Positions 21,101-27,100 are shown, counted from the first letter of the stretch. The stretch is 64,000 bases of DNA from Escherichia coli (GCF_045037415.1 NZ_CP173438.1); one strand, 5' to 3'. Numbers: made by a program.

Positions 21101-24100
21101 GATATAAAGCGTATTCCCCGGTTACATCCACCCCCTGATAATGTAATTGCTGAGCGGTAGAACAATATGCACAGGCCCTGCTCCCGCAGGGAATGTATTT
21201 ACAACGCTCAAGGATAAGCGCCAGTTTAGCGTAGTTGCTCCACATGTCATCGGCCCCGCCGCAATCCTGTATGAGAATATTGGACACTGTATATGCAGAT
21301 GCGTAGTTAAGCTTACGTATCCGTAAACGCTGCTCCTTTAACACTGCTGATATCGTTTCTTGTGATAAACCAACCTGTTTCCCCATAGTTTCGAACCAAG
21401 GAACCAGCGTTTTTTTCGCAGAACTGGTTTTCGATTTTATCTCTTTCATTTCATTCTCCCGCCTGCATACGGCTGTTAACCCAGTTATTGATATCACTCT
21501 CCAGCCAGCCTACCGCCCGGCCATTGTCGCCCGTTAGCCTCTTTGACAAAGGAAAGAATCCTTTCGAGATGAGTCGGTACAACGTCGCTGACGAGTTCCC
21601 CGTCAGATGAAGTACCTCTTTTTTACGCAAAATACGGTTGGTGTTCATGCTTGTGCTCCTTTGAGCTGTTTCAGGAGCGGGTTATTTACAACCACCAAAA
21701 AACGCAAGGATTCACTCAACGATGCCTTCGTTGAGCACGTTAAGGGCATCTTTAATGTGGATGTCATTCGAGATCATCTATTTCTGTCTCCAGAACGGTC
21801 ATATAAAGAAGCAATTTTCACTGAGGCTCAATGGTGATATTTTGTACAAAACACTGTCATGGAGGTGACTATGATTGGTAACCAAAGCAACAAGGCTGAC
21901 GCCAGATGCCACCGGGAACGGAAAAGCAGTAACGAGGTCTTTGAATTTCTGGAGAAGAAGCTTTATCTGGGACGGGATACCCGGCAAAAACTGGCACTGA
22001 TTGCCCGGAAACTGACGGGAGCGGGTTTTAGCCCGGATAAATTCGCTGCGGAGAAAGCGGCAGATGTGCTGAGTGCCTGCGTGAACCACATGTTTAATGA
22101 CCTGCTCAATGAGGGAGAGCCAAACGGGATTTATAGGCCGGAGGAACACCCCATGATAGTCCCGGCCAGGTCCCCTAAGGCACTGGAAATCTATACTGTT
22201 TACCAGCTTGTAAAAGGTCGTTTTGACAAGCTTCATACGGGGGAGTCAGATCGTGAGAAATATGCTTCGGTAGCAGAAAAACTTAATGAGTATGGAATAT
22301 GGAAACCCCGGTTAAAACGACTCTCTGACGGTAAAGAATGGGCGCGTGAGGATGTTGCGTGGATGCTTCAGCCTGAAAATATCAATGCACAAATTAACAT
22401 CCAGAATCAAAAGTACGCGCGGTTGAGTGCTGAAGATGAAACTGAAACCGAGTCTGGCAACGCCTCAACTGCTAAAAACATCTGATGCGCTTGCTGGCAC
22501 TGATCTTCATAGTATCACCACGACAGTCATAGCGCGTCGTCGTGGATATGTCGCTGTGGCCTGCCAACTGGCGGACGGTATTGATATCCACGCCCTGCTC
22601 CAGCAAACGGGTGATGAAGGTGCGCCGCATATCATGCGGGGTAAAACGTGCTATACCTGCCGTTTGCTGTAACTCAGCCAGGATACCCGTTAACCCGGTC
22701 GTAGTCAGCGGTTGGCTTGCGACCTTACCACTGCGCTGAATTCGCCTAAACAACGCACTGTCAGCCTCGTCTGCGCCAACTTTCAGCCACGCACGAATAG
22801 CCTTGTCCACCGCATCCGCCACGTGAATTTCACGGTATTTACGCCCCTTCCCTTGCCTCACCGTCAGGATGCCGTTGTCATAGTCCCGGCGCTCAAGTTT
22901 AACCAGTTCCCCGGCCCGCAGGCCCGTTCCGCAAAGCATCAGCACAATGGCGACATCGCGACAGCGCCGTACAGATTGCGGATGCTGTTTTGCAGCCTGA
23001 ATCAGTACCCGGATTTCCTGCCTGCCCAGCGCCCTTCCCTTGCGCTGGACATCGCCGCTCACGCGCTTAACTGACCGGATACGTGCCAGCGTTTCGGCAT
23101 CCATGTAATTGAGGTTAAAGGCCGTCTGCGCTACGCCCCGGAGTGCTGACAGCGCCATGTTGACCGATGACACGGCGTAACCGTCATCCAGCAGTGCCGC
23201 GCGCACTTTGGCAACGGCGGCGTAGTTAAGTTGTTCCCACGGATAGTCTGCTGCATCCGCACCGTGTTTAAGTATGCTGGCGCTGCGGTTTAACAGGCTG
23301 GTGATACCTCGCCGTCCCGAGGGGGCCAGACCGACAATATACGCATCGAACACGGTGGTTTGCACCACCGGCACGACCTGACGCAACGCTGTCCTGCTCA
23401 TGCGCGTAACCCGCAATAACGTACATTAAACCAAGTAACTTTCAGCATCACACCAGTCCTCGCTCAGCCATCGACACCGTTTCAGTTCCTGCCACGATAA
23501 AGTGATCAAGTAACCGCACATCCAGTATTTCCAGCAGCTCCTGAAGCTTTTTGGTCAACTGGATGTCACACCGGCTGGGTTCAGGCTCGCCGCTGGGGTG
23601 ATTATGGACAAGGATGACGGCGGCGGCGTTATGTTTCAGCACACGCTTAATAACTTCACGGGGGTGAACGCTGACCGAGTTTAGCGTACCCCTGAACAGG
23701 ATTTCGCGGTGCAGCAGCTGATTATGATTATCGAGTAGGATGATGCCAAACTCTTCATGTTCAAGCGGTGCCAGCTCAACCATCACGCACCGTCGAACAT
23801 CATCAGGGGAACAGAGTTGAACCCCACGCTGGTAGTACCGGCTAATAATGTCACGCGCCTGGTCAAGGATACGGGTTTCACGCTGGGTAAACATGGTCAT
23901 GTCAGAACTCCCGTTCAATGAAGTAAATGGCGTCTGGAAACAGCTGGCGGCGGGTTACGCCAGTACGCAGGGAGAAAGCTTTACGGGGCATGGTGGTTCG
24001 CCCGTTGCTGTCGAAGAAGCAGAGCATTTCTTCGTCCATTTTGACCAGAAGGGACCAGTGAAACTGGTCGCTGAGCATAATCAGGCGAGAGTGGTCAGTG

Positions 24101-27100
24101 ACGTCAAGAAACCGCTGCATTTCCCTGAACAGCCGCCCGTCTGTTAACCCCCGCTTCCCTGCAAAGGGTCTGGTGATTTCAACCGGGAACTGGCGGCGGT
24201 AATGCCCTTTCTGCAACACCTGAGCTATTAACCAGTCTAAGCGGTCTTCTTCAATTCCTTCAGTCAGCCATTCATGCAAAGGCCAGCGCTGCTGATAAGT
24301 CTGAATAAGCCAGTTCATTAACGGGCGTCGTTTCACCCTGCCGTCATACAGCCAGCTCAGCATGTTAACCACGCAATAAGCACCGCAAAGACAGTCCAGT
24401 TCGCCCTGTTGAGACGCACGTATCCCTCTGTCAGTCGTCACAGATAATTCCCCATAAATTAGTGATGGTTAGTACAGGGGGATTAGCTTTCCCAGAGAAC
24501 GGTAATGGTGTAGATGTTCATGCCGTGATACTGAATAAAGTTGGATTGCCAGAGTTCAAACAGCTCCCTTCCGGCGTTAACAGGCAGGTCACCAACATAA
24601 GCAAGAAAGACATATTGCTGACTCCAGCTGATATCAATTTCCTTTTCAAGTTCGGGGTATACCGTCCCCATATAACTGAAGTCGGTAATGTAATCAAAAT
24701 ACCATTCATCATTGCGTGAAATAATCCGTATTTCGACAGGATGGTAACCACCCTTTTCAGCGCTGTAACTCAGGTCTTTAAATAACAGACTGACGGCTGT
24801 AATTTTGGCTTTATGCGGCGGTGGATTTCCCGCTTCATTTAATATGATATTTATTAATTCCTGATCGACGGGCATAGCTAGCCCTTCCTGATGGACAATA
24901 TTCATCAGTGATTTTCCTGTTCAATATATTCTGATAAGACGTTATGTCTGCACCAGCACAGGTGGGGTTTAATCACCTAATAAATGGTAAGTGCATGACA
25001 ACGTACTGACTGGGTAAAATATAGTTCACCAGCAATATTATTATATCAAAAATATACTTTTTATGCAAATAGTAACAAAGAGAAACTAATATGTGGTTCA
25101 GCAATGAAATAACTGGCAATAGGTTTTTATTCATTATTAAGTGATGGCATACTTTCCATTCTGCCATGTCAGACAGGTCAGGATTCCGGGGTGGTTCCTT
25201 CTGTCTGGCATGGCGGAAAACTGACGCTATCACACCTTCCCGTTCAGCTTTTCAAAGAGGCGCTTACGCTCATCTTCGGGCAGCTTCATGATTTGTACCG
25301 CCAGTTCAGAAACATTGGGCACCTGAGACATCAGATCGTCCTTTACCAGCCTGAGGGCCTGCTCCATCAGTTGCGCCCGCGAAGCTGGCGACATATTGCG
25401 ATACAGCTGCACCCAGAGGCTTAGCTGGCGATCACTGTCGTTGAGAGTAAACGCTTCGCCCTTAGCCCTGTTTCTCTCATCATCAAGCGACATTGTGGCT
25501 GCGCTAATATGGTAAACCACACCTTTCCCGGCAGTCCTTTTACGACGTATTTCCGGGTGCAGGGATGCCAGCTTTTCCAAGCGCATCCTGGCGCCACGCG
25601 CAGTGCCCGGCATCCCCTCAATATGAGTGAATTCCTCTGCTGTCAGCCAGTCTTTAGCCTCTTCAACAGAAGCTTCAGGATGAGTAGGTATAGCCGAAAC
25701 TGTTCTCTTACTGCTCATATAAATTTCACCAGATATCAATGCGTTAATATGAAAACCAATAAATAGATACCAAAAGAACTTGAAAGGTATCTTTTATTCG
25801 CATTTAATATCCATGTACTGATTCCATGGAGTTAATACTGTGCGTAACTCAACAGCATCGCAGAAAAAGCAAATCAAAGGAAGTTCAGGGAACTGGCATC
25901 GTGCCGATATTGTGGCAGCACTTCACAAGCGAGGGTTAACGCTGGCGTTACTGTCACGCAGTCACGGCCTTGCGCCACGGACATTAAATAACGCCTTAGA
26001 GCGTCATTATCCCAGAGCTGAGCGCATTATTGCCGGGGCTCTGGATACGACACCGGAAACATTATGGCCGGAAAGGTATGCCCTTAAAAATGGACCTAAT
26101 AGCAGGTAAAGGATGCAACCATGGCAACCACCATCACTGAAATAACGGAATGCTTTGAGTATTTTTTCAGTTCTCTTTATCGCAGGGAGTTCGTCAAAAC
26201 CCTGCGTCTGAACGAATGTAGCGAGCGGGAATTACTGCCTCTGGTACGTTGCTATTTGCTGGGTTGGTTTGCAGATAACGTCTCACCGGAAGTAAAAAGC
26301 AAACTGCCAGGAACTGTATCCGGGCACGGTTACATTGATTTTGTCATTGACGATGTGGCCGTTGAGTTTGCAGTACGTAAACCAACTGCGGCACGTTCCA
26401 ATGTCTCTGCGACCGTCAACAGTACAGAAGTAAAGAAATTGATGAAACATGACGGCAAAGCCTTGCTTGTGCTGTTTGATTTCTCTGACACACCCTATTC
26501 AGAAGAACAGATTGAATCCTTCCGCAACTGGCCCTCTCTTGGTCGAGGGAATCATCGCAAGTCTGCATTCAACGTCGTTTATTTCTTTGTGGAAAAACGC
26601 AGACCGCTGGCACTGGGGAAAATCACCAAAAACATCCGTATCACTTAACAGGGAATTAATTAATGAACAGAAAACTGTTGGCCTTATTCATGGCAGCCAT
26701 AACGCTACCAGTCGCAGCAGCGCAGTACGTAAAACCCGGAGCGGTTCTAACCCTGCATCCGGGACAGAATAACGCTGAATTCAACATTAATGCCTCAACG
26801 GGGGATGGTTCGGGCGTATGCAATATGGAGGGGACAGCACAGCAAATAGCTGCCGGAGAAAGTCAGAAGCGTCGCTGGGTCTGGAATGACAATGCCAGCG
26901 AGTGTGTTGCAGTAATTAGTGAACTGACAAACGGTAAGGCCAGCATTATGACACGTGGTTGCGAGGGATACTGCGGGGCTTCTGCGGCAGGCGCAATGGA
27001 TGGTCTATTTAATAAGAAATAAAAGTATCATTAATTTACGAAGGAACTACAGATGAAAAGAGCAATACTTCTGGTATTAATTGCTGCTGGTTTGCTGGCT

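Follow-up and report, generated by a model that had tools for sequence, protein, structure and literature searches.

A predicted papain-fold cysteine peptidase partners RadC in a conserved DUF2787-peptidase-RadC-recombinase cassette of mobile Int/AlpA islands

RadC-like JAB proteins are among the commonest gene products of islands, prophage remnants, and conjugative elements, and their function has been disputed for decades. RadC is already known as a recurrent core gene of Int/AlpA defense islands and as a partner of variable upstream genes, and DUF2787 as a core gene of pipolins and of the Vibrio cholerae island VSP-II. We examined a stretch of 64,000 nucleotides from Escherichia coli (GCF_045037415.1 NZ_CP173438.1), referred to here as the window, with positions counted from its first letter. 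On its minus strand, the genes for a DUF2787 protein, a predicted papain-fold cysteine peptidase of an unnamed family (here CysPep), a short RadC of the type found on mobile genetic elements, and a Xer-like tyrosine recombinase are tightly packed. Comparison with 50 related loci (from genomes, metagenomes, IMG/VR, and one Salmonella record; given L numbers where they must be told apart) identified this block as a conserved core cassette of a mobile Int/AlpA island family, not as cargo. The new elements are the peptidase partner, the recurrence of the four-gene block together with one natural gene fusion, and an annotation error at the peptidase start that hides the predicted catalytic cysteine. 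The block is what stays constant in these islands while they carry anti-phage systems, and its function therefore bears on how such islands establish and persist.

Several described elements resemble parts of this arrangement. In yfjX-yfjY (lfgA-lfgB) of the cryptic prophage CP4-57 and in its paralogues, as in the window, a short RadC directly follows a variable partner near the end of an integrase island, and the window RadC is 44% identical to the K-12 protein YfjY/LfgB. For the gene paired with RadC in CP4-57, however, the annotation gives a putative anti-restriction protein in place of a cysteine peptidase, and the CbtA/CbeA-type toxin-antitoxin pair of CP4-57 is absent from the window. 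On broad-host-range plasmids, RadC is the partner of DUF3085 (PMC12826799). Gammaproteobacterial pipolins have DUF2787 as a core gene next to an IntSXT-type recombinase, with variable defense cargo (PMC11551731), which is comparable to the combination of DUF2787 and a tyrosine recombinase found here, but the present locus has no piPolB, and RadC is unmentioned in that paper. In VSP-II (VC0504-VC0510), DUF2787 (VC0508) and RadC (VC0510) belong to a conserved core beside defense cargo (PMC5900727). Pseudomonas Int/AlpA islands of the I55 type, which are of small to medium size and are transduced by a jumbo phage, share with the present island the integrase end, AlpA, a helix-turn-helix (HTH) protein, defense cargo, the absence of their own transfer machinery, and RadC, which is a recurrent core gene of Int/AlpA defense islands (PMC12595487). 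They differ in integration site (tmRNA there, ychF-dhaR here) and in hosts, and neither CysPep nor DUF2787 has been reported in them. A description of the CysPep-RadC pairing was not found in the searched literature. The initial annotation of the window had been unable to assign the module to a described system, and in agreement with this no PADLOC, Pfam, NCBIfam, or PHROG model exists for the peptidase or for the module as a system; a scan of ten proteins of the region with PADLOC-DB 2.0 returned only marginal JAB matches for RadC (E 0.016-0.047).

The same annotation had proposed a leftward string of five minus-strand genes with short gaps, and all five open reading frames (ORFs) were found where it had placed them. 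The Xer-like tyrosine recombinase (22472-23416; 314-aa ORF, 309 aa in RefSeq) closes the tight block and is preceded by RadC (23448-23900; 150 aa from the ATG at 23900, with the longest ORF extending to 23918), CysPep (23902-24441; 179 aa from the GTG at 24441), the acidic DUF2787 protein (24483-24905; 140 aa, 130 aa in RefSeq), and a candidate repressor resembling Mu c (25230-25739; 169 aa, 162 aa in RefSeq). The ratio of non-synonymous to synonymous substitution rates (dN/dS) was calculated against orthologues in Mangrovibacter, Lonsdalea, Phytobacter, Atlantibacter, Cedecea, and other genera, and amounted to 0.13-0.17 for the recombinase, 0.03-0.11 for RadC, 0.08-0.17 for CysPep, 0.07-0.21 for DUF2787, and ~0.1 for the repressor-like gene, for which a value of 0.40 in one near-identical pair reflects few changes. 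The five ORFs are therefore real genes under purifying selection (dN/dS 0.03-0.21) and not chance ORFs. The claim of short gaps holds for four of them, with 31 nt between RadC and the recombinase, ~1 nt between CysPep and RadC, and 41 nt between DUF2787 and CysPep, but not for the repressor-like gene, which lies 324 nt upstream of DUF2787. The string thus consists of two units, the repressor gene standing apart from the four packed genes. Its inclusion as a member of the string was not upheld, as it is a separate, exchangeable regulatory unit that is replaced by an XRE repressor at loci where the peptidase is still 80-93% identical.

The two units are separated by an AT-rich spacer of 324 nt (24906-25229, minus strand). 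Directly past the repressor stop codon, it contains a hairpin (25159-25218, minus strand) with 18-nt arms and no U-tract, for which an RNA fold of -39.8 kcal/mol (z -6.1) was calculated and which is retained in L009-L011 with small changes in the arms. This very stable hairpin may serve as a terminator or as a site of processing or binding; an Rfam search found no RNA family in 17000-29000. The spacer also contains a promoter-like site facing DUF2787 (TTTGCA-18-TATAAT with a TG, 25069-25040), which matches 10 of 12 consensus positions.

The 179-aa product had been compared with papain/C39-like cysteine peptidases on the strength of a Cys motif, QQGELDCLCGAYC (residues 11-23), and both the predicted fold and the conserved residues, namely invariant Gln, Cys, and His and a near-invariant Asp, agree with that comparison. 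In an alignment of 83 diverse members reaching down to 19% identity, Q12, G13, C19, G20, N26, G62, and H128 are invariant, while L15, D16, Y22, W129, D144, and S145 are nearly invariant, D144 being present in at least 90%. The motif as a whole stood only in part: C19 is invariant, but C17 is kept only in close relatives and C23 is not conserved. Based on these alignments, Q12 (oxyanion), C19, H128, and D144 are proposed to form the active site. AlphaFold2 prediction with the 83-sequence alignment reached a pLDDT of 96.1 and a pTM of 0.91, compared with a pLDDT of 71 for an earlier prediction from 12 sequences. In the predicted structure, C19 is located in the first turn of helix 16-31, H128 just before strand 129-135, and D144 after strand 139-142, from which we infer the canonical papain arrangement; a helical insert occupies residues 38-84. 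A fold search grouped the protein with the papain fold of clan CA, in which the nucleophile helix is packed on a His-bearing beta-sheet. CysPep is accordingly predicted to be a thiol hydrolase of the papain fold, located in the cytoplasm and not part of a larger protein, whose Gln/Cys/His/Asp site is intact.

The profile and structure searches that the initial annotation had called for placed the protein in clan CA but matched no named family, and no Pfam (even at E<=10), NCBIfam, PHROG, or PADLOC model was found for it. The family comprises 735 representatives at 50% clustering (E<=0.001), nearly all of them stand-alone proteins of ~170-200 aa. Its closest papain-fold relatives were named as peptidase C39 (the bacteriocin-processing double-glycine peptidase domains of PCAT1 and ComA) and the ubiquitin-like protein proteases UfSP, ZUFSP, ATG4, and Josephin. 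CysPep differs from C39 in having no Pfam match, in being a stand-alone cytoplasmic protein of ~180 aa, in its helical insert, and in the absence of an ABC transporter or double-glycine leader nearby. The C39 model (PF03412) did not match the window protein and matched only 3 of the 83 members at E<=0.1 (best 0.02), and no ABC transporter or leader-peptide gene was present in the ~50 loci. Among UniProt relatives, some are automatically named "Ubiquitin-like protease family profile domain" or "Ubiquitinyl hydrolase 1"; AFDB50 relatives carry the automatic name "Peptidase C39-like domain-containing protein", while proteins from E. coli are entered as "Uncharacterized"; among the best 50 AFDB50 matches listed for CysPep, none is from V. 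cholerae. A search of Protein Data Bank (PDB) sequences with the family profile returned only human SENP8, a clan CE protein (E 0.013; residues 6-50 and 111-150), with the His/Asp (HW..., DS) and Gln/Cys (QQ..D.CG.Y) motifs both aligned in circularly swapped order. Because the fold of CysPep is that of clan CA, this match is read as convergence of motifs, and a clan CE (Ulp1/SENP-like) identity, including that of a circularly permuted Ulp1/SENP-like peptidase, was rejected.

The RefSeq version of CysPep (WP_000954131.1; L001 21503-21964) has 153 aa and starts at M27, so that Q12 and C19 are lost, and entries from Pantoea, Citrobacter, and Pectobacterium at the National Center for Biotechnology Information (NCBI) are likewise short (153 or 138 aa). 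The GTG at 24441 is preceded by GGGGA 7 nt upstream, the N-terminal 26 residues are conserved throughout the family, and the first 26 codons are constrained, with 5 non-synonymous against 11 synonymous changes relative to L014. The ribosome-binding site, the family conservation, and the codon constraint together identify the 179-aa form as the one with the correct start. The mis-start removes the predicted catalytic cysteine and thereby hides the family from routine annotation. CysPep is also the fastest-diverging gene of the block, with 38-43% identity at loci where its neighbors retain 52-59%.

The coupling of the peptidase to a JAB/MPN protein, noted at the outset, was corroborated, the partner being a RadC with an intact JAMM motif. 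The protein consists of the JAB/MPN domain only. It exceeds the cut-off of TIGR00608 (145.1 bits against 133.85) but falls short of the full-length equivalog NF000642 (160.8 against 180), aligning only with the C-terminal two-thirds of that model (profile positions 77-211), because the N-terminal domain of RadC is missing. Its JAMM motif (E...HxHx7Sx2D) is HNHPSGEPEPSRCD at residues 99-112, with E82 upstream. A 17-nt overlap between the CysPep and RadC genes had been described, which exists only if RadC starts at the TTG at 23918 (156 aa). The ATG at 23900 is the more plausible start judging from its context: it lies one base past the upstream TGA (TGAcATG), has GGGAG 8 nt upstream, and is the start given by RefSeq. 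The tight juxtaposition itself is conserved, most other lineages having spacings between -4 and +12 nt under the longest-ORF rule. Whether RadC counts as a second peptidase was answered in both directions. One preprint describes in vitro degradation of the XRE-type antitoxin MqsA by LfgB, in an assay with overnight incubation and a poorly soluble enzyme (10.1101/2023.09.23.559088), which supports protease activity for a protein 44% identical to the window RadC, but Iyer et al. (2017) predicted that RadC processes nucleic acids (PMC5512222).

The 140-aa protein, for which no family had been suggested initially, carries the PGAP name DUF2787 (PF10980), matches PHROG 13741 (E 2e-42), and has relatives of solved structure, as phmmer returned PDB entries 2w56 (VC0508 of VSP-II, E 2e-25) and 2v1l (E 4e-23). 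The latter is presumably VC1805. VC1805 is described as monomeric, with a Mam33/p32-like fold (PMC2881812). The DUF2787 protein has an isoelectric point of 4.5, and its gene is directly upstream of CysPep in many lineages. The recombinase matches XerC/XerD/XerA-type NCBIfam models (E 5e-37 to 1e-27) and a PHROG integrase (E 1e-40), and its catalytic residues are present (HxxR, as HDMR, at 261; GH at 286; RY at 295). It is a member of the Xer-like family and not XerC itself because its XerC match (E 5e-37), like all the NCBIfam matches, is under the equivalog cut-off.

In the window lineage and in L002-L007, L009-L019, L021-L023, L025-L027, L036, L042, L047, L048, L049, and L051, over a CysPep identity range of 24-97%, the gene directly downstream of CysPep encodes a RadC whose JAMM motif is intact. 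The recombinase comes after RadC in the window lineage as well as in L022-L027, L036, L038, L042, L048, and L051. Around this pair the arrangement varies. An XRE repressor gene is followed by CysPep and RadC in L002-L007, L019, L021, and L047, and by DUF2787, CysPep, RadC, and the integrase in L012 and L014-L016. In L036 and L042, DUF2787, CysPep (24-25% identical), and RadC are followed at some distance by an integrase, and in L051 a small ORF precedes CysPep, RadC, and the integrase. The L038 locus encodes a natural CysPep-RadC fusion (P0127, 338 aa) in the order DUF2787, fusion, PcfJ-like protein, integrase. The genes ~1 nt apart, the co-inheritance down to ~24% identity, and the one fusion speak for a functional linkage of CysPep and RadC. 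The pair is usually accompanied by DUF2787 and the recombinase, and the linkage of CysPep to RadC, DUF2787, and the recombinase is steadier than that to the repressor. The possibility raised initially that the gene string might not be conserved as a unit was set aside by its conservation in many genera. The scan of genome contigs used a narrow alignment, and the loci returned are mostly from Enterobacterales and Pasteurellaceae.

Two further variants extend the range of contexts. On the Salmonella plasmid pIndS104-CTX (L048; CP101356.1 160223-178762), a 322-kb replicon typed as non-mobilizable, a Mu-c-like gene precedes CysPep, RadC, DUF2787, a YeeU-family antitoxin gene, DUF905, and an integrase, an order that joins the cassette with a RadC/CbeA gene set of the CP4 type. 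In Pasteurellaceae (L028-L035), an XRE gene is followed by CysPep with no RadC. There, a minimal island of ~6 kb beside selA/selB, as in Haemophilus seminalis (L028, 3010-9291) and L029-L035, has the order integrase, FtsK-like protein, XRE and CysPep (154 aa), a 151-aa ORF on the opposite strand, AlpA, and a 345-aa protein with weak similarity to replication initiators. Distant relatives that lack RadC adjoin an ArdC-like anti-restriction protein (PHROG 7245, E 5e-11), DUF3768 with DUF927, or ParA, and one is found beside a HepT/MNT pair next to carB. The context of CysPep was a mobile element in all loci examined.

The segment 22400-25800 is 100% identical in many complete E. coli chromosomes. 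It is present in 595 of 5,426 complete E. coli genomes (~1 in 9) and chromosomal in all of them, with at least 80% of the segment in 474; the only plasmid matches are two large E. coli records, both typed as non-mobilizable, in which the block is 99.9-100% identical. In strain SK1144, the segment is part of an island between ychF and dhaR that also carries a P4-type integrase, insertion sequence (IS) elements, an ABC-three-component (ABC-3C) system, and a reverse transcriptase of the retron Ec67 family. A skeleton recurs among the related loci: genes for a lipoprotein, an exported protein, a 175-aa protein, and (a Ner-like protein) read in one direction, and (a regulator), DUF2787, CysPep, RadC, and the Xer-like recombinase read in the other, followed by an opposing gene for a 208-aa protein and then by AlpA and putative replication genes in the direction of the block. 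The flanks of the block (the 175-aa protein, regulator, 208-aa protein, and AlpA) are constant across many genera while the cargo differs between related loci (CBASS, Fic, M78 or M78-HTH, ABC-3C with a retron), which marks the block as core and not cargo.

We tentatively favor the explanation that the island uses the CysPep-RadC module, expressed with the recombinase, against host or rival-element proteins, an explanation that we regard as possible but somewhat short of probable. It is favored because of the steadier linkages to RadC, DUF2787, and the recombinase, and because neighbors in the wider family (ArdC-like, DUF3768 with DUF927, YeeU with DUF905) are of the anti-restriction or establishment type. 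The recurrence of RadC in Int/AlpA defense islands, its pairing with an anti-restriction gene in CP4-57, and the fast divergence of CysPep also speak for it. On this view, the block is a core operon in a family of small, chromosomal, integrative islands that have Int and AlpA and are rich in defense cargo. It would run from its own promoter together with the recombinase, that is, on island entry and when integration is needed. CysPep and RadC would act together on a macromolecular substrate, probably protein, with the acidic DUF2787 as a binding or decoy partner. The module would thereby serve the island, whose establishment or maintenance would otherwise be hindered by the host or rival-element proteins that it removes or processes, a counter-defense or conflict role that may be likened to that of ArdC, the precedent for protease-dependent anti-restriction. 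A more specific version, in which CysPep and RadC form a two-enzyme complex that binds DUF2787 and proteolytically disables a host immune or DNA-binding protein on island entry, seems doubtful to us. If true, it would represent a new protease-based counter-defense mechanism and the first clear biochemical role for the RadC proteins of mobile elements, and the conserved, occasionally fused peptidase partner provides a concrete pair for testing.

Several findings weigh against such a role. CysPep occurs without RadC in the Pasteurellaceae islands, in L050, and in the distant relatives L037, L039-L041, and L043-L045; because CysPep is kept in these lineages, the pair is not obligatory. Typical anti-defense genes are common on phages and plasmids and the CysPep subfamily is not: its setting is chromosomal Int/AlpA islands, and it was found in none of 50,697 phage records and in 3 of 72,556 plasmid records, all typed as non-mobilizable. 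The dN/dS values indicate ordinary purifying selection, and a signal of whole-gene positive selection or an arms race was not seen. The prediction of Iyer et al. would give RadC nucleic acids as substrates. Finally, promoter-like sites are no more numerous in the region than expected from shuffled sequence, and the site facing DUF2787 is a consensus match only.

The phage and plasmid counts also led us to reject a separate candidate, namely that CysPep is a plasmid leading-region or phage gene.

A switch of the ImmR/ImmA kind, in which CysPep, alone or together with RadC, would cut the repressor of its own island and so trigger excision, is the next explanation to consider, and we judge it unlikely. 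ICEBs1 has the operon immR-immA-int, with the same order of repressor, protease, and integrase, divergent from the other arm of the switch, and the recombinase gene downstream of the window block matches this layout. In Enterobacterales, Pasteurellaceae, and an IMG/VR contig, the gene immediately preceding CysPep on the same strand, at gaps of 50-130 nt, encodes an XRE repressor, and this adjacency is old, since the XRE proteins are 42-52% identical to one another. The reported degradation of MqsA by LfgB would fit proteolysis of such a regulator, although the conditions of that assay, as described above, detract from it. The window, however, has a papain-fold thiol enzyme and a JAB protein in place of ImmA, and neither CysPep nor RadC matches the ImmA/IrrE (M78) zinc metalloprotease family. 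Its repressor gene is set apart from CysPep by the spacer with the hairpin and promoter-like site and by the DUF2787 gene, and distant relatives of CysPep have no adjacent repressor gene at all. The exchange of regulators prompted this downgrading. Peptidases that are 80-97% identical stand behind unrelated repressors: an XRE protein at L012 and L014-L016, where CysPep is 80-93% identical to that of the window, and a Mu-c-like protein at L009-L011 and in the window itself. BLASTP finds no similarity between the two kinds of repressor, and purifying selection on CysPep persists after the swap. A repressor that is replaced without change in the peptidase argues against an ImmA-like role.

Alternatively, the pair could protect the host as an exclusion or abortive-infection system, with a latent protease pair that the resident island expresses and that phage infection switches on. 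Precedents exist in e14, whose Lit protein cleaves EF-Tu, and in lambda, where rexAB and cI are transcribed together. The block resides in defense-rich islands (ABC-3C and a retron here, CBASS elsewhere), its orientation is that of the repressor gene, which would permit expression in the resident state, and CysPep diverges fast. Against this, the PADLOC scan gave nothing beyond the marginal JAB matches, the block contains no obvious sensor or nucleotide-binding component, it is a conserved core with fixed neighbors and not a variable hotspot gene, and it is tightly linked to a recombinase. We therefore consider host protection quite improbable, somewhat more so than a repressor-cleaving switch. 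A role as an accessory to recombination or replication, with the peptidase and a nucleic-acid-processing RadC clearing covalent protein-DNA intermediates (recombinase or initiator adducts) or aiding the Xer-like recombinase, would accord with the predicted activity of RadC and with the recombinase gene that follows it in several deeply diverged lineages. It is very unlikely, however, given that CysPep-RadC occurs without the Xer-like recombinase in L002-L007, L018, L019, L021, and L047 and that we know of no tyrosine-recombinase system that needs such helpers. Least credible is an addiction module in which CysPep is a toxin neutralized by RadC or DUF2787 to stabilize the island, since, despite the tightly coupled two-gene arrangement and the YeeU-family antitoxin gene adjoining the pair at the Salmonella locus, CysPep occurs with neither RadC nor DUF2787 beside it in Pasteurellaceae and in several further lineages, and the gene sizes and the fused form are unlike those of known toxin-antitoxin pairs.

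The regulatory genes and the flanks of the cassette were also characterized. Residues 27-98 of the repressor candidate align with the N-terminal DNA-binding region of two PHROGs, 310 (Mu-type transposase, E 1e-7) and 7148 (repressor, E 1e-5), and no Pfam and no significant PDB sequence match was found for the 169-aa protein. Divergent from it is a gene for an 89-aa HTH protein resembling Ner/SfsB (25840-26109, plus strand; NF007670 SfsB, E 1.5e-19, under the cut-off; PHROG 769, E 1e-29), which co-occurs with the Mu-c-like gene across loci. By similarity, the two genes resemble a c/ner switch of the Mu type, with no Mu transposase gene. In sister islands, the whole c/ner-like pair (25230-26109) is swapped for a single XRE repressor while the flanks are 80-100% identical, which implies recombination at the spacer.

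The gene for the 175-aa protein (26121-26648, plus strand) shares a rightward operon with those for two exported proteins (26663-27022 and 27053-27388). Its product is far better conserved than any other of the island core, being 75-100% identical at loci where CysPep is 38-42% identical, with dN/dS of 0.00-0.04. No match to it was found in Pfam, NCBIfam, PHROGs, PADLOC, or the PDB; E35, E37, D73, R86, E103, and D120 are invariant, and E82 and K105 are almost invariant, which bears a vague resemblance to the pattern of PD-(D/E)xK nucleases. Its counterpart in Rodentibacter (L034) is longer, at 300 aa by the longest-ORF rule. On the other side of the block, the gene for the 208-aa protein (21859-22485, plus strand) is convergent with the recombinase gene, the two 3' ends overlapping by 14 nt (22472-22485), and is kept between the block and alpA across loci; the 208-aa protein has no family match, and a neighboring 465-aa protein has no Pfam match. 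The AlpA-family regulator or excisionase (21451-21648, minus strand; PHROG 2790, E 7e-11; PHROG 66, E 9e-9) marks islands of this type, and an AlpA gene comes after the block at almost every related locus. The AlpA ORF of the window overlaps the longest form of a downstream 171-aa ORF by 47 nt (21451-21497), and RefSeq starts the 171-aa gene later.

The window is collinear with the SK1144 record except for one missing IS5 copy and a 2.26-kb insertion (8547-10806), which lies within an IS3-like/ISEc24 region beside the P4-type integrase near ychF. The downstream cargo (28268-33799, minus strand; L001 25869-31400) consists of a three-gene ABC-3C system, of which the 635-aa ORF at 28268-30175 is part, and a retron Ec67-family reverse transcriptase/endonuclease. 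The three ABC-3C genes and the retron, the latter in a stretch of low GC content, correspond by position to those of SK1144.

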